Source: Candidatus Woesearchaeota archaeon
GTDB taxonomy: Archaea > Nanobdellota > Nanobdellia > Woesearchaeales > WAPJ01
Reading direction: 5' to 3'
NCBI GenBank assembly: GCA_047602765.1
Contig: JBLKOL010000002.1
Span: 10,597-74,596, forward strand
Length of the DNA stretch: 64,000 nt
The number at the start of each line of letters is the position of its first letter. Position 1 is the stretch's first letter. Shown in pieces: positions 9,408 to 64,000 of this stretch. Position numbers and translations under genes: made by a program. The notes beneath the pieces are model-generated. The model worked only from the letters and a program-made list of their open reading frames with translations, was not told where the DNA came from and did no database searches.

Positions 9408-11765
9408 GTGGTATGCTCAAAGCCTATGGTACGCGCATTCCTCGGTGAAGCGAACTCGAAGCGCTTCTCGTACGAACTCTCTAAACTCACACGGCATGCG
9501 GCGATCCTCGGGACGACGGGTTCGGGCAAGACGGTGATGGGCAAAGTCCTCATCGAAGAAGCCCTCGCCTCGGGCGTTCCGGTGATCGCCATCGATCCGA
9601 AGGGTGATCTCGGCTCGCTCGGGGTGGTGCATAAGGACTTCGACTTCCGTCCGTACGGCAAGCTCACTACGTCTCGCGCGCTCAAAGTGCGCGACCACTA
9701 CCGCCAAGCGAACATCCCATCAGGACTTGTGGATTCGCTCACGAAGGTTACGACGACGGTCTACACGCCAAAATCACAAGTGGGGCGTGCGGTGAATCTC
9801 ACGCCTGATCTCTCAGCGCCCAAGCGGTTCGCCCATCTCTCAGCGTCCAATCCGATCGCAGCCGCAGGATTCGTCGAGCCGATCGCCGCTTCGCTCCTCT
9901 CCCTTGCAGGGATCAGCGGGTCGCTCGAAGAACGTGCCGAGTCGTTCATCGCAGCGCTCATACTCCATTCGTGGAATGAGGGTCGTGATCTTGACATCCC
10001 TGCGCTCATCGCACACGTCAAGGATCCGATGATCGATGGTATCGGATCGCTGAGCGTCGGAGAAGTCGTATCGGATAAGGAGCGTACGCGTATCGCAGCT
10101 CAGCTCAATACGATCATCTCGTCTCCGGCCAAGCGCGCGTGGTCGCTCGGTGATCCGCTCGATATGGAGTCGATGCTCTCGAAAAAGACGCTTTCGGTCT
10201 TCGATCTTCGCTGGGCGACGAGCCAGTCTGATAAGCAGTACGTCGCTGAGCGTATCATGAGTGAATTGTATCGCGCACTGCTCAGCCGTGGAGGCTCTTC
10301 GAGGCTGCGTTACGTGCTCTATATCGATGAACTCGCAGGACTTCTCCCACCACCGCCGGCGAGCCCGCCGTCCAAGCGAGCCCTCGAACTCCTCGTACGA
10401 CAGGCGCGGGCCTTCGGTCTTGGTATCGTCGTAGCGACGCAGAACCCTGGTGATATCGATTCGCGTCTCTTCGGTAATATCGGAACGCGTTTCATCGGAC
10501 GCCTGCGTACGAGCATGGATATCGAGAAGGTTGCGATCGCCATGGACCTTCCTCCTTCACAGTTGCGCGAAGAGGTCTCGGCCTTGACGGCCGGAGGGTT
10601 CGTCGTGAACGATGCCGTCGACAATCGCATGAGCGTCTTACGCTGCCGTTGGCTCGCCTCGTTCCACGAAGGTCCGCTCAGCGAACGCGAGGTCGGATGG
10701 GTGAACGATGGTGCACCGGCACCGGCAGAGCCGCTTCCCAAGCCTTCACGGTCCGCTGCGGCTTCGAAGGATGCGAAGACGTCCGCGAAGGGTGCGAAGG
10801 GCCGGACGACAAGGGGCACGAACAAGAGCGGAGCAGGGAAAGCGGAGCCTTCGCGTATCGCCGGTAAGAACATCGTACGCGATGCGAAACGCGCGAAACA
10901 CACGACGGTTTCTCGTACGCAGCACCTTGCGCCTTCGGTGGACAAGCAGATCAAGAATCTGATCGGACTCGTCAAGAAGCATGCTGATGACGTACAGCTC
11001 AAGGTCGAGATATCCGAGCGACCTGCGCAGTCGTATACGCCACACCTGCGTCTTGTCGTAGCGCCCAAGCCGCTGCGCGGACTCGAGCTTCCGATCCAAG
11101 GACCGTTCGTCTTCGATATGACGAGTCGTCTCATCCCGATCGGAAACTACCTGAAGGGCAAGACGTTCTCAACGTACGTTCCATCCGATATCTCGATCGA
11201 GAAGCACGCGCGTTCGGTGATGAAGGCCGTAACCTATGCGCGTCACGAGGCGAAACGCGAACTCGCAGGTACGTTCTACGAGTCCAAGCTCACCGCCTTC
11301 GCATCACCATCACGTTCGGAGGTCGAGGATATGAACCACCGCTTCCTCTCTGAGGAGCTCACGCCGTTCTTGCGTCAGATCGATGCGAAGGCCCGGCGTG
11401 ATATCGACGATCTCAAGGCGCGTATCTCAGCCCTTCGGACCAAGCGTTCGAGCCTCAACCGCGAGCATACGATCCACCGCGCTCGTCGAGCCATGAGGCG
11501 CGTGCTCACCGATCAGAAGCTCAAGAAGCGTACGGCACAGATGCAAGAGCGCGAACGACGCATGGCGATGATCGACAAGGAGATCGCACAGCTCAAAAAA
11601 CGCATCGAAACAGTCAAAGAGCGCGCATCAGAGCAGAAGGAACGCCGCAAGGCACGCGTGTACGAGAAGGCGCACTCACAGGTACGCTCGATCCGCTATC
11701 GTCCGACGAACGACGATCTGCGCATCCACGCACAGGTGTTGCTCGTACGCAGCCGCGGACGATAA
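9408..11765 (+). CDS. HerA-like / DUF853 (YjgR)-family P-loop ATPase with a ~340-aa Lys/Arg-rich coiled-coil C-terminal extension.
   Basis: Walker A AILGTTGSGKTV followed by VPVIAIDPKGD. Walker B VLYIDELAG. VVATQNPGDIDSRLFGNIGTRFIGRL motif. GTG at 9408 or ATG at 9426 as start. Confidence 0.75.
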   Translation: MVCSKPMVRAFLGEANSKRFSYELSKLTRHAAILGTTGSGKTVMGKVLIEEALASGVPVIAIDPKGDLGSLGVVHKDFDFRPYGKLTTSRALKVRDHYRQANIPSGLVDSLTKVTTTVYTPKSQVGRAVNLTPDLSAPKRFAHLSASNPIAAAGFVEPIAASLLSLAGISGSLEERAESFIAALILHSWNEGRDLDIPALIAHVKDPMIDGIGSLSVGEVVSDKERTRIAAQLNTIISSPAKRAWSLGDPLDMESMLSKKTLSVFDLRWATSQSDKQYVAERIMSELYRALLSRGGSSRLRYVLYIDELAGLLPPPPASPPSKRALELLVRQARAFGLGIVVATQNPGDIDSRLFGNIGTRFIGRLRTSMDIEKVAIAMDLPPSQLREEVSALTAGGFVVNDAVDNRMSVLRCRWLASFHEGPLSEREVGWVNDGAPAPAEPLPKPSRSAAASKDAKTSAKGAKGRTTRGTNKSGAGKAEPSRIAGKNIVRDAKRAKHTTVSRTQHLAPSVDKQIKNLIGLVKKHADDVQLKVEISERPAQSYTPHLRLVVAPKPLRGLELPIQGPFVFDMTSRLIPIGNYLKGKTFSTYVPSDISIEKHARSVMKAVTYARHEAKRELAGTFYESKLTAFASPSRSEVEDMNHRFLSEELTPFLRQIDAKARRDIDDLKARISALRTKRSSLNREHTIHRARRAMRRVLTDQKLKKRTAQMQERERRMAMIDKEIAQLKKRIETVKERASEQKERRKARVYEKAHSQVRSIRYRPTNDDLRIHAQVLLVRSRGR

Positions 11766-18110: not shown

Positions 18111-18605
18111 GGCTTCCGAGCTGATTGGTTTACGCGTCTTGAGGATCGGGTGTTCATCGATGCTCTGTGCGCGAAGTTCGTTCTATCCGGGGAAGTGGAT
18201 GGAACTCGCCGGTAGACTAATCTGCTCATCCCTCCTTTTATCGGATGGCTTTCGATCGCCGCTCTCCGAGCTGGCTCTATCGGATACTCGTTTGCGCAGA
18301 TCGGGGAATCTCGATTGCTTATCGACTGAAGGCGTCTCACAAGTGTGGTTCTCGATAGAGGTGGATGTGCTCTACCGGGCCGATGAGGCGATCCTGCTGA
18401 TGTCGGTACGAGTTGAGAGTAGACCGGGAGGACGTGCGCATCGGCCCAACTCTATCATACCGGAACAGAACCACACGTGGGTTTGTGAAGTGGCGGTCAC
18501 GAGGTGCCGCATCGTTTGCGCTGCCTGCTCCTGCGCAGGGTACTCGAGTGGATGTCATCACGTGGATGAGCGGCCGGTCAACCGAGGCTCGTACGCACCT
18601 ACCCT

Positions 18606-18806
18606 TCAGAATAACGGTACGACGTTAGCTATGACGAGGATCGTGTAGGTTACGAGTCCGACTTCGACTGCGATGATCAGGTACTCCCACCATGCGAATG
18701 AGAGTTTCGGTCGCTCTTCGTCTTTAGGTGATGCTCCTGCTTTTCCGTAGAACCCTCCTTTGACGTCGGTGTCGAAGAGATCCGGTTTGTCGTCGTAGAA
18801 TCCCAT
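18606..18806 (-). CDS. Small membrane protein (66 aa), last gene of the surface-protein operon.
   Basis: GGAGGAGG immediately upstream of ATG 18806. C-terminal transmembrane helix. Start abuts the stop of the upstream gene. Confidence 0.5.
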   Translation of the reverse strand: MGFYDDKPDLFDTDVKGGFYGKAGASPKDEERPKLSFAWWEYLIIAVEVGLVTYTILVIANVVPLF

Positions 18807-33989: not shown

Positions 33990-34724
33990 GTGCTACCAAT
34001 GTCATCACAGGAATCTTTGGAAAGAAACGAGCTTGAAGATGCGATCCGCACGGCGCTCATCAACAGGACAGCACACGAGTACAGCCGCACAATGAGTAAC
34101 CCAGATCTCCAGAACGGATTCGAAGAACACCTCTACAAGGCAGCGGCAGCAAGAACAGGTTCTGAAGGACTCAGATTCGGCCCCGGTAAAGACGTAGGGG
34201 ATCCTGTGATCGCACAGGTGAGCGCACGGGTACGCGAGATGTTTGCTCCCATCCGAATCAGAACGGGCGCTCTTGAGACTGCCATGAACCAGTACAGGAA
34301 CCCCGAGGAAGCGAGAGCAGAGTTCGAAAACACCTTCGCCACCCCAGAAATGGCAGGACTCGGGGAAGCGATGGAACCGCTCCTCGGATACCTTTCCCGT
34401 ACAGCGCAGGTCGTGTCAGAACTCGGAGAAATCGCCGAACGCGAGGGACTCGATACAGCCCTGGCAAGGGAGACAGAGTATCGAGTACTGCGATCGATGT
34501 TCCCTACTGCACAGGCATACGTTGCCCACGCTCTGCAACCAGTTCAAGCAGCCACGGACTATCTTGCGGCGTTCGAGGAGTTCGTAACCCTCACCGCCCC
34601 GTCGGAAGCAGACAGGGAAGAAGTCGTAGAAAGCATCTCAGTTCAACGAGTTCTCATGGAATGGGCACAGCCATACATTGAACGTATGCTTGAAGAGAAG
34701 GCGTCCGCGATCTACAACGCATGA
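33990..34724 (+). CDS. Hypothetical 244-aa protein encoded between the direct repeats (A-ending codon bias, lower GC).
   Basis: Clean ORF. AT-rich upstream region. Codon usage (aga/aca/gga) differs from the flanking genes. Confidence 0.55.
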   Translation: MLPMSSQESLERNELEDAIRTALINRTAHEYSRTMSNPDLQNGFEEHLYKAAAARTGSEGLRFGPGKDVGDPVIAQVSARVREMFAPIRIRTGALETAMNQYRNPEEARAEFENTFATPEMAGLGEAMEPLLGYLSRTAQVVSELGEIAEREGLDTALARETEYRVLRSMFPTAQAYVAHALQPVQAATDYLAAFEEFVTLTAPSEADREEVVESISVQRVLMEWAQPYIERMLEEKASAIYNA

Positions 34725-51606: not shown

Positions 51607-52659
51607 ATGGGAGTCTTCAAGGATATGCTCGGTTCGGGTCAGACGCTCTTCAAGAATCCGAACGCGCTCGAATACGACTTCATACCCAAGCTCATCCCCT
51701 TCCGTGAAGGCGAGCAACGAGAGATCGTCTCGGCCATCATGCCGCTCATGCAACAGCGCAACGGGCGCAACCTCTTCATACACGGAACGCCGGGTATCGG
51801 CAAGACGCTCGCGGTGCGCGCTGTCATGCGCGAGGTCGAAGACGAGACCGAAGAGGTCATCCCGCTCTACGTGAACTGTTGGAACAAGAACACGACGTAC
51901 AAGATCCTCACGCACCTCGTCGAGGAACTCGGCTATCCGTTCACACAGAACAAGCGCACCGAGGAACTCTTCAAGATCCTCAAGGAACGCGTGAACAACG
52001 CATCCGCGGTCTTCGTCTTCGATGAGATCGACAAGGCTGAGGAGCTCGACGTCCTCTACCTGATCCTCGAGGAGATATTCCGCAGTTCGATCATCATGAT
52101 CACGAACCATGAGGAGTGGATCGTACACCTCGACATGCGTATCAAGAGTCGGCTCATGCCCGACCACCTCTCCTTCGAGCCGTATTCGCTCGAAGAGCTC
52201 AAAACGATCCTGCGCGAACGAGCCGAAGCCGCGTTCTACGACGGCGTGATCACCCCTGAACACGTGGGCATCATCGCTCAGAAGACGTTCTCGGCGAAGG
52301 ATGTGCGTACCGGGCTCTTCTTGCTGCGCGAAGCGGGGACGTACGCCGAGTCCGAATCCAAGAAGGCCGTCGAAGCCGAGCACGTCGCTCGTGCCGTTGC
52401 GAAGATCGACGAGTTCAAGATCAAGAACGTCGACGACCTCGACCCGGATCTTCAGAGCGTGCTCTCGCTCATCAAAGAGCACGATGGTGAGCGTATCGGC
52501 TCGCTCTTCGAACGCTATTCGAAGGCTGCGGACGTATCTTACAAGACGTTCCAGCGTCGCGTCGGAAAACTCGAGAAGGGACGCTACATCAGCGTCGATC
52601 ACGTCGAAGGCGGCGAAGGCGGTCGCACGAGCATCTTGCACTACAACGCGAACCGCTAA
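51607..52659 (+). CDS. orc1: Orc1/Cdc6 replication initiator (AAA+ plus winged helix).
   Basis: LFIHGTPGIGKT Walker A, FVFDEIDK Walker B, C-terminal wH (RRVGKLEKGRYISV). Confidence 0.9.
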   Translation: MGVFKDMLGSGQTLFKNPNALEYDFIPKLIPFREGEQREIVSAIMPLMQQRNGRNLFIHGTPGIGKTLAVRAVMREVEDETEEVIPLYVNCWNKNTTYKILTHLVEELGYPFTQNKRTEELFKILKERVNNASAVFVFDEIDKAEELDVLYLILEEIFRSSIIMITNHEEWIVHLDMRIKSRLMPDHLSFEPYSLEELKTILRERAEAAFYDGVITPEHVGIIAQKTFSAKDVRTGLFLLREAGTYAESESKKAVEAEHVARAVAKIDEFKIKNVDDLDPDLQSVLSLIKEHDGERIGSLFERYSKAADVSYKTFQRRVGKLEKGRYISVDHVEGGEGGRTSILHYNANR

Positions 52660-60361: not shown

Positions 60362-60434
60362 GCCTCTGTAGCTCAGTGGCCAGAGCGGTTGCCTCGTAAG
60401 CAACAGGTCCGGGGTTCAACTCCCCGCAGAGGCT
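60362..60434 (+). tRNA. tRNA-Thr (anticodon CGU).
   Basis: Manual fold of 73 nt. Acceptor GCCTCTG/CAGAGGC, D-arm GCTC-AGTGGCCA-GAGC, anticodon stem GTTGC/GCAAC with loop CTCGTAA, T-arm CGGGG-TTCAACT-CCCCG. Confidence 0.85.
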
Positions 60435-60600
60435 TGGCCAACAAAGTCTCGTTTCTTTGAGTCTCCCATACACAATCTCGTCGCGGAGGTCGGACTGTAT
60501 CGTTAAGGCACCTTCATCATGCTCCTACCTAGGCGGACTCCAACTAAAGACTCTCAGAAGGACCGAAGCACTCTAATACTCGAATCGCGAAGAATCGCCT

Positions 60601-61431
60601 ATGGCGCGCCGGAAAAAGAACTACACGACCAATCCAATAACCGGAAAGCAAGAACGGGTCCTGCGCTCAGATGAAACCCAGAATCCGTGGACCGGAAAGG
60701 TCAGTAGAAGAAGAACCGGAAAGCGTAGGCTACCAACCAAGAAAAGCGCCCGCTCGAGTAAGCAAGAAATCGACCCTGCCTTCATTCTATTCGTTCTCGT
60801 GGCAGTAGCACTAGCAATCGTGTACCAATGGGCTGTCAACAACCCAATCCTATTCTGGAGCATCATAACTTTGATTGTCGTGGGAACCGGAGTAGCGCTT
60901 TGGAAGATACCAAGCATAAGACCTAGATTCCTGAACAACGTTTTGGGATCAGCGACTTCACACCCGAAATCAGACGAGGCATCAGATCTGGAAGACCCGT
61001 ATGGGAGCATCGTACAAGCCATCAGAGAGACAGAACTCGAACCCGTACGAAACGAGGAGGACTTCGAGAAACAACTCTATCAGTGGCTCAAGGCCAAAGG
61101 ATTCAAAGTACAACGACAAGTCAATGACAGGACCCGTTCACCAGTCGATATAGTCGTAGACGGACAAGTTGCTATAGAGTTGAAGATCGCAGAGTCACTC
61201 AACAGCGTTAGGACCTTAGTCGGTCAAGTAGCTGATGACGTGGACGAATACGACAATGTCATAGGAGTAATCCTCGATGCTGGCAAACTATCAGGAGTAG
61301 AAGAGTACGCTGAGAAGATCAAGCGCGTCAACCCTGAGAAGGTCGACAGCGTAATCCTCAAAGCACCCTTGAACCGAAGGAAGCGAAAGGACAAGTACTT
61401 CCAAGTACGACAGAGCACGACGTACAAGTAA
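60601..61431 (+). CDS. Low-GC gene for a membrane-anchored PD-(D/E)xK nuclease-like protein (basic N-terminal tail, 2 transmembrane segments, restriction-endonuclease-like core).
   Basis: …EEDFEKQLYQWLKAKGF…PVDIVVDGQVAIELK… (E…D…ExK). Codon usage (gga/aca/aga/ata) and ~48% GC differ from the flanks. Directly 3' of the tRNA. Confidence 0.65.
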   Translation: MARRKKNYTTNPITGKQERVLRSDETQNPWTGKVSRRRTGKRRLPTKKSARSSKQEIDPAFILFVLVAVALAIVYQWAVNNPILFWSIITLIVVGTGVALWKIPSIRPRFLNNVLGSATSHPKSDEASDLEDPYGSIVQAIRETELEPVRNEEDFEKQLYQWLKAKGFKVQRQVNDRTRSPVDIVVDGQVAIELKIAESLNSVRTLVGQVADDVDEYDNVIGVILDAGKLSGVEEYAEKIKRVNPEKVDSVILKAPLNRRKRKDKYFQVRQSTTYK

Positions 61432-61436
61432 GAATC

Positions 61437-61979
61437 ATGAAAGCGCTCATCATCATCGATATGCTCGAAGGGTATGCGCAGCAGTGCTACAACCGTGACG
61501 AGGTCGTTGCGAATCAGCTCGCGTTGATCGGTGCGTTCCGAGATCGGAGGCTTCCGATCATCATCGTGAGTGCTGATCTGAGCGCGCCGCCCAATCCGGT
61601 CATGGTTCGGTTGTGGGGTGTGGAGTTCGCTGATGAACCTGAGAAGGCTCGGCTCATCGGTGAGCTCGAGAACGTCGAAGGCGCGACGTACTTCTCCAAG
61701 ACCGAGTACTCTGCGTTCTTCAGAACGCCGCTCGAATCCTTCTGTGAGGAGCACGGTATCGATGAACTGTTCTTCTCTGGTTACGCTTCGGGCGTGTGCG
61801 TGTTCTTCTCGGCGGTTGATGCGGCGATGCGTCGTATCCTTCCCGTGCTCGTCTCTGATGCGTCTACGACGAACGAGCGCTCATGGCACGAGAAGACTTG
61901 TGAGCGTTTCGAGGAGGTCCTCGGTCCGGTGTTGGATACTCAGCAGATTCTCGTGAATCTCGATAATCCGAAAGGGTGA
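61437..61979 (+). CDS. Isochorismatase-family cysteine hydrolase.
   Basis: MKALIIIDMLEGY… and …GYASGVCVFFSAVDA (catalytic Cys region). Confidence 0.75.
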   Translation: MKALIIIDMLEGYAQQCYNRDEVVANQLALIGAFRDRRLPIIIVSADLSAPPNPVMVRLWGVEFADEPEKARLIGELENVEGATYFSKTEYSAFFRTPLESFCEEHGIDELFFSGYASGVCVFFSAVDAAMRRILPVLVSDASTTNERSWHEKTCERFEEVLGPVLDTQQILVNLDNPKG

Positions 61980-63216: not shown

Positions 63217-63780
63217 GTGGAAACGCTCTTCACAAGCGATCTCTTCGTGTACGTGTTCGTTCCTCTGCTCATCATGCTCTCACGCGTCGTTGATGTGAGT
63301 CTGGGTACTGTTCGGATCATCTTCGCGAACAAAGGTATCAAGGCGTACTCGGCGATCATCGGGTTCTTCGAGGTGCTCGTCTGGCTCGTTGTGATCACGG
63401 CGGTCGTCAACAACCTGAACAACGCCGTCTCGTACGTGGCGTACGCTCTGGGTTTCTCGCTCGGAACGTATCTGGGCATCATGCTCGAAGAGCGCATCGC
63501 GGTCGGCCAGGTGCGTATGAGGATCATCACGAAGAAGAACCTGACGAAGATGATCGATGATCTCAAGCCGACGCGGTACGTGTTCGTGAGCGACTCGACG
63601 GACAGCTCTGAGGGTACGATCAAGATCATCAATGCGTTTCTCGATCGTTCGGACCTCAAGAAGGTCGTAGCGAGGGTGAAGGAGCGCGATCCCGAGGCGT
63701 TCTATACGGTGGAGGATCTCAAGATGATCAAAGAAGAGTACAAGGAGCGCAAGCGCTTCTTTTTCGCGAAACGCAAGTGA
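63217..63780 (+). CDS. DUF2179/UPF0316-family membrane protein.
   Basis: N-terminal transmembrane segments, then a C-terminal domain of UPF0316-like length with basic tail. Confidence 0.6.
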   Translation: METLFTSDLFVYVFVPLLIMLSRVVDVSLGTVRIIFANKGIKAYSAIIGFFEVLVWLVVITAVVNNLNNAVSYVAYALGFSLGTYLGIMLEERIAVGQVRMRIITKKNLTKMIDDLKPTRYVFVSDSTDSSEGTIKIINAFLDRSDLKKVVARVKERDPEAFYTVEDLKMIKEEYKERKRFFFAKRK

Positions 63781-63842
63781 ATATACTCCTTCCTACACCC
63801 ACCAAGAAAGCCTCTTAAACGGTTCTTCGGACAGCCCACCTG

Positions 63843-64000
63843 GGTGGTTGGATGTACCGATACATCAGTGTGTTGCTGATCGCAGTGTTCTCTCTGAGCG
63901 TCGTATCTGCGCTCGAAGTCGATCTTTCGGCGAGCGACGTGCGCTATGGTCAGCCGATCGTATCGGGCTGTATCGAGTCGTCGATCGGTTGTTCTCGTAT
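63843..64000 (+). CDS. Start of a secreted protein (partial, signal peptide).
   Basis: MYRYISVLLIAVFSLSVVSALE signal peptide. Runs off the window. Confidence 0.3.

Follow-up and report, generated by a model that had tools for sequence, protein, structure and literature searches.

Archaeal antiviral defences are poorly charted, above all those of DPANN. To our knowledge, the discrimination of self from non-self by the location of a membrane-bound nuclease was shown only recently and in bacteria only (Shield 2023, SNIPE 2026), and we know of no archaeal counterpart to the interaction of SNIPE with phage tape-measure proteins. In Pseudomonas, the Shield nuclease ShdA sits in the membrane and has its PD-(D/E)xK RmuC domain on the cytoplasmic side, and the single gene is enough for defence (PMC10270631). 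ShdA without its anchor appears toxic, and one model has ShdA activated by envelope changes, with immunity at the population level (PMC10270631). SNIPE is likewise membrane-bound and cuts phage DNA during injection, while its delta-TM form cleaves the host chromosome (PMC13190303). The N-terminal anchors of SNIPE homologs comprise one transmembrane (TM) helix in 59%, two in 7% and other membrane-targeting domains in 34% (PMC13190303). Thermococcus prieurii virus 1 (TPV1) is an integrating virus (PMC12934983) and carries a gene annotated as 'putative nuclease RecB family' (AEY69074.1). Here, we analyse a gene in a 64 kb stretch of DNA (the window) from a Ca. Woesearchaeota metagenome-assembled genome. 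We suggest that a foreign, membrane-tethered nuclease might cut DNA as it enters the cell, and give this explanation as a whole a probability of roughly 0.45, slightly short of even odds.

A low-GC gene directly behind tRNA-Thr

The locus consists of three parts:

60362..60434, + strand: tRNA-Thr, anticodon CGT (CGU), intact, without encoded CCA (ARAGORN; Rfam RF00005, 70.4 bits, E = 2.3e-14)
60435..60600, + strand: spacer of 166 bp from tRNA to ORF, in which GC begins dropping (composition profile; sequence read)
60601..61431, + strand: complete ORF of 276 aa, predicted membrane-anchored PD-(D/E)xK nuclease-family protein (ORF list)

A first-pass annotation made from the sequence had described tRNA-Thr(CGU) followed by a single low-GC gene of foreign composition, and ARAGORN, Rfam, the ORF list and the GC profile confirm this arrangement. 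The ORF (60601-61431; NCBI locus tag ACMXYM_01080, 'hypothetical protein') is a real gene, and its start codon is supported by an N-terminus, 'MARRK...NPITG', common to homologs. The spacer 60435-60600 presumably holds the putative promoter of the ORF. It has no Rfam match and contains no repeat of the tRNA. Since Rfam over 58-64 kb detects the tRNA alone, a riboswitch or sRNA is absent from the spacer. The neighbours of the ORF in the window are a TM1506 gene and an isochorismatase-family gene (Pfam matches), and the latter, of native composition, lies downstream with its start at 61437, 5 bp after the ORF.

With a GC content of 49.1% versus 56.7% on average across the window (sd 2.2%, same-size windows; z = -3.4), the ORF is the lowest-GC stretch in the whole 64 kb. 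Several codons are used far more often than in other genes, including AGA (0.26 vs 0.08), GGA (0.77 vs 0.38), ATA (0.37 vs 0.10), CTA (0.24 vs 0.02), TCA (0.44 vs 0.13) and CAA (0.77 vs 0.35). The preference for A-ending codons reported earlier thus holds for AGA, GGA and ATA but fails for ACA, which is unenriched (0.07 vs 0.12). Synonymous-codon likelihood ranks the ORF as the second most atypical gene in the window. The low GC and the atypical codons support a composition that is foreign for this genome. Homologs in chromosomal contexts elsewhere also lie 0.03 to 0.11 below their surroundings in GC.

The odd composition could alternatively reflect the Lys/Arg-rich and hydrophobic amino-acid content of a native housekeeping nuclease for repair or recombination. 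Such a nuclease would fit the lowish GC at first and second codon positions, the mere 5 bp to a native downstream gene, and the fixation of the gene in the population, where a single synonymous SNP is seen. However, amino-acid content cannot explain the composition because synonymous third-position usage deviates too, with A at third positions (0.33) being 4 SD higher than in other + strand genes (0.13 +/- 0.05) and a GC3 of 0.55 vs 0.67. The family is also sporadic, never found in a conserved neighbourhood and common to a virus. The first-pass annotation would have been contradicted had profile searches put the protein in a housekeeping family and had relatives carried native-like homologs at this locus; no housekeeping family is matched in Pfam or NCBIfam. 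We consider a native housekeeping origin very unlikely.

The protein is found as an exact match on 25 contigs. Among contigs read with the exact downstream gene, 23 of 23 also carry the ORF, no empty site appears among these 23, and the ORF is invariant apart from the one SNP. Selection is therefore not readable from the population data, the ORF being fixed and almost invariant there. The locus comparison in relatives proposed earlier yielded only these population contigs; searches of JGI metagenomes and GTDB representatives turned up no closely related genome. The sole match of the flanking isochorismatase gene among GTDB representatives was an unrelated bacterial fragment, and the TM1506 neighbour together with the tRNA 3' half had no match in JGI metagenomes.

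Predicted fold and membrane topology

The encoded protein divides into five parts, with four putative catalytic residues in the nuclease core:

60601..60771, + strand: residues 1-57, Lys/Arg-rich tail containing an 'NPxTG' beta-hairpin repeat at residue 11 and another at residue 28 (composition; AF2)
60772..60906, + strand: residues 58-102, predicted transmembrane helical hairpin with TM1 58-80, a loop NPI of 3 residues and TM2 84-102 (hydropathy; AF2; charge)
60907..60993, + strand: residues 103-131, flexible linker of roughly 30 residues (AF2; alignments)
60994..61365, + strand: residues 132-255, predicted PD-(D/E)xK nuclease core, alpha-alpha-beta-beta-beta-alpha-beta-alpha-beta (AF2; profiles; conservation)
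61054-61056, + strand: putative catalytic residue E152 (conservation)
61147-61149, + strand: putative catalytic residue D183 (conservation)
61177-61179, + strand: putative catalytic residue E193 (conservation)
61183-61185, + strand: putative catalytic residue K195 (conservation)
61366..61431, + strand: residues 256-276, basic C-terminal tail and stop codon (composition; alignments)

The domain at residues 132-255 is acidic, with a predicted alpha-beta-beta-beta-alpha-beta core. The AF2 model of the domain reaches a pLDDT of 88 and a pTM of 0.81, and domain pLDDT exceeds 90 in the full-length model. The modelled elements are helices at 152-165, 200-213 and 233-243, and strands at 170-174, 182-186, 190-196, 219-226 and 248-254. 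E152 lies in helix alpha1, D183 in beta2 and E193-L-K195 in beta3, so that the PD-(D/E)xK catalytic signature is present. The helix 'EEDFE' corresponds to residues 152-156 and the stretch 'PVDIVVDGQVAIELK' to residues 181-195. Among the best 150 of 763 relatives, E152 is conserved in 147, D183 in 149, E193 in 148 and K195 in 138. Only these residues and L163 are conserved at 90% or more, the four catalytic positions being the polar ones. The window protein matches the phage and virus profile phrog_28707 'nuclease' (E = 4.3e-12, 46.8 bits, residues 137-263 on profile positions 103-228 of 244), which is also matched by 145 of the 150 relatives (best 4e-95). The top structural match in BFVD is a viral PD-(D/E)XK nuclease (E = 5e-5, TM 0.55/0.56). 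The restriction-endonuclease-fold signature recognized in the first pass is hence borne out, and conservation, profile and model together support that the C-terminal domain is a PD-(D/E)xK nuclease with an intact E...D...ExK site.

Matches to described structures and curated families are sparser. Foldseek searches of the PDB, run with models of the entire protein and of the domain, returned nothing at E <= 1e-3, and compact nucleases superposed at a best TMq of 0.42-0.46. The RFC/AAA+ proteins among the top Foldseek matches were rejected as generic alpha/beta likeness with an rmsd of 8-11 Å. Sequence searches of the PDB with the single protein, a 10-sequence profile and a 150-sequence profile found no nuclease match. 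The sole significant match there was to the SAP domain of Ku70, in the N-terminal part of relatives. The first-pass annotation had proposed NERD, Mrr, Hjc and NucS as families to search, yet none is matched by the window protein at E <= 10 or figures among the 25 families commonest in the 150 relatives. EndoMS/NucS shows a weak structural resemblance to the domain (TMq 0.42), and hhalign against a single Hjc protein gave a probability of 0.8%. PDDEXK_1 and Cas_Cas4 are unmatched by the window protein and also missing from the 25 commonest families. Against a single Cas4-like protein, hhalign gave 0.2%, and the window protein has no Cys cluster. The family does share a motif GQxxxY, with Q in 134/150 and Y in 132/150 relatives. 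The window protein reads GQVADD, keeping Q209 and replacing the Tyr by D213 as in 4/150 relatives, and its activity could be altered because of this replacement.

The window protein reaches no Pfam or NCBIfam curated cut-off. Below threshold, it resembles MTES_1575 (E = 0.018), GxxExxY (0.026) and PDDEXK_3 (0.058). Among the 150 relatives, Pfam matches were to DpnII-MboI (17), MTES_1575 (12), PDDEXK_9 (5), PDDEXK_3 (4), Tox-REase-9 (two members), PDDEXK_4 and HSDR_N, seven families that all have the restriction-endonuclease fold, and no enzyme family of another fold was matched. The nearest sequence profiles are DpnII-MboI (PF18742), MTES_1575 (PF18741), PDDEXK_9 (PF08011) and PDDEXK_3/GxxExxY (PF13366, TIGR04256). 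Their alignments cover the catalytic core from alpha1 to beta3 (residues 151-205 of the window protein), and each is matched by 4-17 of the 150 relatives with E down to 4e-6, the window protein itself staying below cut-offs. An orphan Type II restriction endonuclease of the DpnII/MboI kind, with its methyltransferase elsewhere or lost, could explain why DpnII-MboI and MTES_1575 are the commonest, though sub-threshold, Pfam matches in family members. Yet the window protein itself has no DpnII-MboI match, and the domain is small (about 125 aa) with no recognizable specificity domain. The TM, SAP and amphipathic-helix N-termini of the family are atypical of Type II enzymes, and the DpnII-MboI, MTES_1575, PDDEXK_9 and PDDEXK_3 families have neither TM or SAP N-termini nor a basic C-tail. 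No methyltransferase gene adjoins the ORF in the window (Pfam, +/-10 kb) or any homolog in the contexts examined, and we regard an orphan restriction enzyme as highly improbable.

The Lys/Arg-rich N-terminal tail noted earlier is present, with a length of 57 rather than 60 residues. It contains 18 K+R (net +14, pI 11.9) and four short strands at 8-36 (AF2, pLDDT 63-76). The NPxTG motif is kept in eight numbered homologs (P0003-5, P0015, P0017, P0025, P0058, P0084) and in SAP-type relatives. The tail is predicted to be cytoplasmic, and its probable ligands are nucleic acid or the head groups of lipids. Both transmembrane helices seen in the first pass, 58-80 and 84-102, are recovered by hydropathy (2.55 and 2.20), charge and AF2 (helices 59-80 and 82-102, pLDDT 86-88), and the protein is predicted to be membrane-anchored. 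By the positive-inside rule, both hairpin ends are predicted to face the cytoplasm (N-in/C-in), and the strongly positive flanks of the hairpin place the nuclease in the cytoplasm. An extracellular scavenging nuclease was rejected on this topology. The linker has a pLDDT below 50 at residues 109-130, is poorly conserved and varies in length in alignments. The C-tail carries 8 K+R among 21 residues, with 'RRxKxK' conserved in the family. The combination of a nuclease fold with a membrane anchor is accordingly modelled with considerable assurance and very probably correct.

Family, genomic contexts and origin of the gene

The family comprises at least 763 clusters at 50% identity and has no Pfam or NCBIfam model. 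We analysed 161 sequences, namely the window protein, first-search homologs and the 150 best deep-search representatives of the 763. At least one TM helix is found in 55 of the 161. The N-terminal modules are interchangeable: some members have one TM helix or a TM hairpin, others an amphipathic helix with a SAP DNA-binding domain. Members without TM helices have strongly amphipathic N-termini (muH 0.49 vs 0.34, p = 2.5e-16) and also SAP/HeH DNA-binding domains. Named carriers are all archaea or the virus TPV1. A tblastn search of PLSDB plasmids gave no match, and a scan of IMG/VR gave TPV1 itself only. No conserved partner gene recurs across the contexts examined. The family is an uncurated, solitary single-gene module in archaea and one archaeal virus. 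In one context, a Methyltransf-family gene is situated about 3 kb from the homolog and is unlinked.

The closest relatives of the same architecture stem from small, low-GC, DPANN-like contigs. Many DPANN are without nucleotide biosynthesis, and an episymbiotic cell could use the nuclease for DNA import and salvage, degrading host DNA at the inner membrane face for nucleotides. The assignment of the organism to Woesearchaeota (DPANN), these nearest relatives and the predicted location at the membrane would suit such a role. However, members of the family occur just as much in Thermococcus, Pyrococcus, Aeropyrum and Archaeoglobaceae, which are free-living, and in a virus. The gene is moreover compositionally foreign and part of no uptake operon, and no competence or transporter partner is conserved among contexts. 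Nucleotide salvage is consequently improbable, if marginally less so than a restriction or housekeeping enzyme.

A homolog with the same architecture (P0017) has a tyrosine integrase two genes away, another lies beside a Y1 transposase, and another at a strain-variable border. Further homologs are located beside ParE, MazE/SpoVT-AbrB, HicA, PIN, DUF3800 and plasmid MJECL genes, and the TPV1 gene adjoins regulators. Of 9 long contexts, 3 have a tRNA gene within 2 kb on the upstream side. The Thermococcus camini homolog directly follows tRNA-Arg, and that of Pyrococcus NA2 belongs to an island that follows tRNA-Phe/Gly. The occurrence of the solitary family gene close to tRNAs, integrases, toxin-antitoxin genes and sites that vary between strains supports an origin from mobile elements. 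A horizontal or mobile origin of the gene in the window is probable.

The first-pass annotation had offered a relic of an integrated element as one explanation, and the case for it is circumstantial. The gene would then be a passenger or remnant of a decayed integrated virus or plasmid, with a nuclease that once served the element's own life cycle through genome processing, recombination-dependent replication or host-DNA degradation and now has little or no host function. The foreign composition and the position directly 3' of tRNA-Thr, paralleled in T. camini and Pyrococcus NA2, favour such a history, as do the integrase near P0017 and the other mobilome contexts. So do the homolog beside regulators in the integrating virus TPV1 (PMC12934983), its annotation as 'RecB family nuclease', which suggests a role in the element life cycle, and the RecB-type QxxxY motif of the family. 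In the window, however, the tRNA 3' end is unique, as stated earlier: no second copy was found with a 23-mer allowing <=3 mismatches, with shared k-mers down to 12-mers or by repeat search. The same k-mer and pattern scans detected no att repeat of the tRNA 3' end at the T. camini and Pyrococcus NA2 loci, leaving all three tRNA-adjacent genomes without one. The absence of an integrase reported in the first pass also holds for +/-10 kb around the ORF, where no integrase or recombinase has a Pfam match. The ORF is intact, retains the four catalytic residues and is fixed in all 23 contigs read, and there is no evident use for a membrane anchor in the replication of an element. Across the family, the intact solitary gene persists in many chromosomal contexts, which suggests that it is retained for its own sake. 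A relic is thus a serious but rather unlikely explanation. If the gene is a mere element relic, it would be an ordinary case of a foreign gene beside a tRNA.

The toxin-antitoxin neighbourhoods invite a different explanation. An abortive-infection or toxin effector might be held inactive at the membrane until perturbation of the membrane by infection or proteolysis of the linker frees or activates it, whereupon the nuclease would degrade host and viral DNA and kill the cell. The disordered linker 103-131 would be open to proteases, homologs often sit beside ParE, MazE/SpoVT-AbrB, HicA and PIN, and two family members match Tox-REase-9. The activation of ShdA by envelope changes in the Shield model, with its population-level immunity, offers a precedent (PMC10270631). 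Against this, the ORF has no adjacent cognate antitoxin or immunity gene, its neighbours in the window being TM1506 and the isochorismatase-family gene. No sensor domain is detectable in Pfam, NCBIfam and PADLOC searches, and the SpoVT/AbrB neighbours of homologs are divergently transcribed and missing from most contexts. We consider an abortive-infection effector improbable. More generally, with regard to the candidate role as defence or abortive-infection effector raised in the first-pass annotation, the protein has no PADLOC match, no known defence genes lie within +/-10 kb of the ORF in the precomputed Pfam annotation, no defence island is seen here, and no partner gene is conserved.

A putative tethered nuclease among known systems

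We favour the explanation that a horizontally acquired single-gene module encodes a Mg2+-dependent PD-(D/E)xK DNA nuclease. The two-helix hairpin, N-in/C-in, would hold this nuclease at the cytoplasmic membrane face. The basic N-terminal tail flanks the hairpin, and the catalytic domain would hang on the flexible linker of ~30 residues and end in a second basic tail. By analogy with Shield ShdA and SNIPE, tethering might keep a non-specific nuclease off the nucleoid. The position at the membrane could let the nuclease meet foreign DNA from virus, plasmid, vesicle or symbiont-host traffic and cut it on entry. Traffic of DNA and metabolites is intense at the membranes of DPANN episymbionts. The outcome would be entry-point restriction or superinfection exclusion. 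We infer the topology, the DNase activity, the spatial logic of self and non-self and the defence role. Entry-point defence, taken as a function by itself and drawn from the analogy, is a tentative suggestion that we hold more doubtful than not.

The TPV1 protein and phrog_28707 belong to the same C-terminal domain family as the window protein. The TPV1 gene shows 35% identity in the domain (tblastn), and the E...D...ExK site and the basic C-tail are found in both. The TPV1 protein is soluble, has no TM helices, and carries an N-terminal DPxTG motif and a HeH/SAP-like region. In the window protein, by contrast, a basic tail bearing two NPxTG hairpins precedes a TM hairpin, and the QxxxY Tyr is lost. 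PADLOC gave no match for the window protein, which is therefore not assignable to Shedu, Shield, PD-lambda-1/SNIPE or other catalogued systems.

ShdA resembles the window protein in its N-terminal anchor, in its single gene and in a cytoplasmic domain of the PD-(D/E)xK superfamily, the cytoplasmic placement being a prediction here. Tethering of ShdA has been proposed as a restraint on a non-specific DNase. ShdA differs in being bacterial, longer than 500 aa and anchored by one TM helix, and in having an RmuC domain (PF02646). The window protein has no RmuC match at E <= 10, and RmuC is absent from the 25 Pfam families commonest in the 150 relatives. Shield ShdA is an analogue in the same superfamily, and the window protein is not a Shield member.

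SNIPE (PD-lambda-1) of E. coli combines TM, DUF4041 and a GIY-YIG nuclease (PMC13190303). The SNIPE family is like the window family in having a conserved C-terminal nuclease facing the cytoplasm, a DNA-binding module and a variable membrane-targeting N-terminus. SNIPE differs in its GIY-YIG rather than PD-(D/E)xK fold, its bacterial host and its DUF4041, which is absent from the window protein; neither DUF4041 nor GIY-YIG has a Pfam or PADLOC match there. The analogy with Shield and SNIPE spans bacteria and archaea and, in the case of SNIPE, two different nuclease folds.

The locus leads to a nuclease family of considerable size, archaeal and viral, that has no Pfam or NCBIfam model. If the family is a defence or superinfection-exclusion module, it would represent a new single-gene immune mechanism for archaea and also offer for study a small nuclease domain, of about 145 aa, that may be thermostable. 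The architecture of the family varies as that of SNIPE does, with a conserved nuclease and swappable membrane-targeting N-termini. A bolder and rather unlikely extension of the analogy is that the whole family does in archaea what the membrane-bound defence nucleases Shield and SNIPE do in bacteria. A TM hairpin, one TM helix or an N-terminal amphipathic helix, as exchangeable devices, may then bring the nuclease to the inner membrane face, where it would destroy incoming DNA, and a SAP domain or basic NPxTG tail may serve as the DNA-binding module. Self and non-self may be told apart by location, not by sequence or modification, and viruses such as TPV1 may carry the nuclease for superinfection exclusion. 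If true, archaea, DPANN episymbionts among them, would gain their first system of this kind, alongside Shield and SNIPE in bacteria.

Position and composition of the predicted nuclease gene

A single long ORF follows the only tRNA gene that ARAGORN recognises in the window. A spacer of 166 bp separates the two, and 5 bp lie between the stop codon of the ORF and the next gene.

60362-60434, + strand: tRNA-Thr(CGT) (ARAGORN; Rfam 70.4 bits)
60601-61431, + strand: the nuclease gene, a single long ORF of 276 aa (ORF list)

The ORF is the lowest-GC stretch of all 64 kb, with 49.1% GC compared with a window mean of 56.7% (sd 2.2%, windows of equal length; z = -3.4). The frequency of A at third codon positions is 0.33, against 0.13 +/- 0.05 in other + strand genes, and synonymous-codon likelihood ranks the gene second most atypical in the window (LL -1.253). 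The first-pass annotation had named aga, aca, gga and ata as favoured codons, which holds for all but aca (0.07 vs. 0.12).

Codon shares in the ORF and in the other window genes
Codon, ORF, other window genes
AGA, 0.26, 0.08
GGA, 0.77, 0.38
ATA, 0.37, 0.10
CTA, 0.24, 0.02
TCA, 0.44, 0.13
CAA, 0.77, 0.35

The genome is strand-biased at third positions and the ORF has the skew of an opposite-strand gene, which would fit a recent arrival or an inversion. Frequencies in the window are A3 0.13, T3 0.18, G3 0.31 and C3 0.37 in + strand genes, and A3 0.24, T3 0.09, G3 0.22 and C3 0.45 in - strand genes. The + strand excess of G over C and of T over A is a bias of the replication-strand type, and few archaea would be expected to show it so clearly. 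About 9 kb upstream of the nuclease ORF, at 51607-52659, lies an Orc1/Cdc6 gene. The most atypical synonymous codon usage belongs to a 162-aa ORF (18160-18648, +; LL -1.345). A 241-aa ORF (33999-34724, +), without match in a Pfam search, is a second candidate foreign gene of similarly odd composition (A3 0.31 and GC3 0.56, vs. 0.13 and ~0.69 in other + strand genes).

The neighbouring TM1506-family and isochorismatase-family genes are both of native composition. Within 10 kb on either side, neither an integrase nor a known defence gene was found, and no methyltransferase gene adjoins the ORF. The ORF is intact and is fixed in the population, being present in all 23 contigs read that carry the exact downstream gene, and varies by one synonymous SNP. 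A native housekeeping nuclease could be fixed in this way, yet the foreign composition makes such an origin very improbable. Searches of GTDB representatives and JGI metagenomes found no close relatives for a same-locus comparison. Population contigs also differ by ~20 SNPs within 360 bp (63597-63960, from the 3' end of a DUF5698 gene into the beginning of the ORF after it), with at most 4 in the other ~11 kb compared. A tract of recombination, or a gene end that is hypervariable, would look like this.

Protein organisation and probable nuclease family

The protein is composed of the following segments.

Residues 1-57: basic tail (18 Lys/Arg, net +14, pI 11.9) with two NPxTG repeats, modelled by AF2 as two small beta-hairpins
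Residues 58-80 and 84-102: two hydrophobic helices with a 3-residue loop between them
Residues 103-131: linker, disordered in AF2
Residues 132-255: acidic domain, modelled with confidence (pLDDT 88 and pTM 0.81 when modelled by itself)
Residues 256-276: second basic tail (8 of 21 residues Lys or Arg)

The initial observation of a tRNA-Thr followed by a low-GC single gene encoding a tail, transmembrane (TM) helices and a nuclease-like domain was borne out, with a Lys/Arg-rich tail of 57 rather than 60 aa. The positive-inside rule would put the two ends of the hairpin in the cytoplasm, with the catalytic domain hanging from the inner membrane face.

Matches of the window protein alone were all below Pfam and NCBIfam thresholds, and these weak matches all belong to the PD-(D/E)XK clan (MTES_1575 0.018, PDDEXK_3 0.058, GxxExxY 0.026). 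A word-indexed search retrieved only 12 homolog clusters. An exhaustive HMM search with the C-domain profile retrieved 763 cluster representatives at E <= 1e-3 (265 at <= 1e-10), and the best 150 of these 763 underlie all alignment, Pfam and PHROGs counts below. Only E152, L163, D183, E193 and K195 are conserved in at least 90% of members (E152 in 147, D183 in 149, E193 in 148 and K195 in 138 of 150). The modelled domain has the order alpha-alpha-beta-beta-beta-alpha-beta-alpha-beta, and the conserved polar residues fall on the first core helix, the start of beta2 and beta3, the canonical E...D...ExK arrangement. Phrog_28707, annotated as nuclease, matches 145 of 150 members and the window protein itself (4.3e-12, residues 137-263).

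Recurrent Pfam matches were DpnII-MboI (17 members, best 4e-6), MTES_1575 (12), PDDEXK_9 (5), PDDEXK_3 (4) and Tox-REase-9 (2), as well as PDDEXK_4 and HSDR_N; among the 25 commonest families, no enzyme fold other than the restriction-endonuclease type recurred. A Type II restriction-modification pair was rejected as no methylase adjoins the ORF, and an orphan Type II enzyme is very improbable.

Foldseek found no PDB match at E <= 1e-3. The top matches, to RFC, were dismissed as generic alpha/beta resemblances (rmsd 8-11 A), and the compact nuclease matches were weak (TMq 0.46 for Card1, 0.44 for FokI, 0.42 for EndoMS). Among predicted viral structures, the best match was a PD-(D/E)XK nuclease domain-containing protein (E = 5e-5, TM 0.55/0.56), followed by a haloarchaeal virus PD-(D/E)XK nuclease, endonuclease I and MmcB-like proteins. 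The domain is thus very probably a PD-(D/E)xK nuclease with a predicted intact active site. The RecB-type QxxxY motif is widespread in the family (Q in 134, Y in 132 of 150), but the window protein's own sequence does not match it. Here, as in the closest relative, Asp (D213) stands in place of the Tyr, a substitution found in 4 of 150 members.

In nearly all members, the conserved domain lies at the C-terminal end. Across 161 sequences (the window protein, the word-search homologs and the best 150 of the 763 representatives), 55 have at least one TM helix, 34 of them two. A small subgroup (P0003-5, P0015, P0017, P0025, P0058, P0084) has exactly the architecture of the window protein, the two-NPxTG basic tail and TM hairpin. 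Proteins P0170-P0180 are slightly closer in the domain (44-47% identity) and keep the basic tail and hairpin, with NPxTG absent. Most members without TM helices start with an MGFxDKxKK segment of high helical hydrophobic moment (0.49 vs. 0.34 in internal segments, p = 2.5e-16; 52% exceed the internal 90th percentile). A DLKKICKxYGIGEPS motif follows, which in several members matches the Pfam models SAP, SAP_new25 or Rho_N (best 2.5e-13) and which the family profile aligns with the Ku70 SAP domain; an NPxTG turn often comes after it. These N-termini, shared by TM-less relatives (P0009-P0161) as amphipathic helix, SAP/HeH motif and NPxTG turn, could combine a membrane-targeting helix with a DNA-binding module. 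We found no description of this combination in nucleases in the literature searched.

Genomic contexts of the family

Named carriers are all archaeal or, in the case of Thermococcus prieurii virus 1 (TPV1), a virus of archaea. The archaea are several Thermococcus species, Pyrococcus sp. NA2, Aeropyrum pernix, Archaeoglobaceae and the Woesearchaeota MAG of the window. No partner gene recurs across the contexts examined.

TPV1: homolog annotated as putative nuclease RecB family, adjoining a C2H2 zinc-finger gene and a SpoVT/AbrB regulator
L008 (T. camini): directly 3' of tRNA-Arg, ahead of a ParE toxin-antitoxin pair
L016 (Pyrococcus NA2): island beginning after tRNA-Phe/tRNA-Gly, with SpoVT/AbrB, DUF3800 and PIN genes near
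L013: amid MJECL32/33 plasmid genes, MazE-like and HicA genes and a CoiA nuclease
L011: adjoining a Y1 transposase
L018 (same architecture as the window protein): tyrosine integrase two genes away (31.3 bits vs. cut-off 27.1)
L028/L029 (~1.09-Mb, DPANN-sized contig): solitary homolog, the two strains diverging 276 bp downstream
L021: lone insertion amid metabolic genes

Chromosomal homologs are usually GC-poorer than their flanks (window -0.076, T. camini -0.114, L010 -0.087, Pyrococcus -0.034, L028 -0.048, L021 -0.041), whereas those on viral, plasmid or integrase-linked contigs are not. Of 9 long contexts, 3 have a tRNA gene no more than 2 kb upstream of the homolog (rough chance estimate ~4%), so a tRNA association of the family is suggestive only. 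The first-pass annotation had seen no second att copy, and a repeat of the tRNA end was likewise absent from the window and the two Thermococcales loci. The latter are small, tRNA-started islands (L008 9667-10978, L016 8090-10999) without att repeats or integrase fragments within 10 kb, holding toxin-antitoxin or SpoVT/AbrB genes that resemble the neighbours of the TPV1 homolog. L028 and L029 are 99.5% identical on both sides of ~0.9-1.4 kb of non-homologous sequence starting right after the homolog, from position 10891, which places this family member at the edge of a hotspot of strain variation.

Against this mobile background, the gene might be a relic without activity or might encode a nuclease that serves the life cycle of the element itself. 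This reading is possible though unlikely, and a relic would have to accommodate an intact predicted active site. A nuclease for DNA import or nucleotide salvage by a DPANN symbiont is less plausible still; the membrane anchor might suit it, but carriers include free-living Thermococcus and a virus.

Proposed function and known membrane-bound nucleases

The protein may act as a metal-dependent DNase, fixed at the cytoplasmic membrane face via a flexible linker, whose two basic tails might bind DNA or acidic lipids. Anchoring would prevent a non-specific nuclease from reaching the chromosome and would station it where foreign DNA enters. Such spatially restricted cleavage is the best-supported functional hypothesis, if a tentative one drawn by analogy; for the full reading, in which fold, anchor and origin are counted as well, we put the probability at roughly 0.45. 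Carriage by TPV1, a temperate virus, beside regulators would fit superinfection exclusion. A family-wide archaeal role in location-based immunity or superinfection exclusion is doubtful. Release from the membrane as an abortive-infection or toxin effector seems improbable, even with toxin-antitoxin genes near some homologs. The initial interpretation is partly supported. It holds for the fold of the nuclease, the anchoring in the membrane, the foreign origin and the link to the mobilome, and is hypothetical for a defence or abortive-infection function and for a relic of an integrated element.

The logic of spatial restriction has experimental support from two bacterial systems, Shield ShdA and SNIPE. 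ShdA protects as a single gene and degrades DNA in vitro, and its anchor-less form could not be cloned (PMC10270631). The membrane-bound SNIPE cleaves the DNA of phages while it is being injected; without its TM helix, SNIPE attacks the host chromosome (PMC13190303). The window protein lacks the RmuC domain of Shield and the DUF4041 and GIY-YIG domains of SNIPE. PADLOC returned no match, which excludes Shedu and its other systems, and no profile match places the protein in NERD, Mrr, Hjc or NucS. Like the present family, SNIPE proteins carry a conserved nuclease behind variable N-termini (59% one TM, 7% two TM, 34% other membrane-targeting domains; PMC13190303). A 2014 survey of archaeal dark matter (PMC4158269) lists PD-(D/E)XK nuclease arCOGs that are associated with viruses or plasmids (arCOG07102, arCOG09441). 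The window protein very probably belongs to the PD-(D/E)xK superfamily, and it is a member of the family that includes phrog_28707 and the TPV1 gene annotated as RecB family nuclease. Within this uncharacterised archaeal and viral family, it represents a form with an NPxTG tail and a predicted membrane anchor, analogous to the recently described bacterial membrane-bound defence nucleases.
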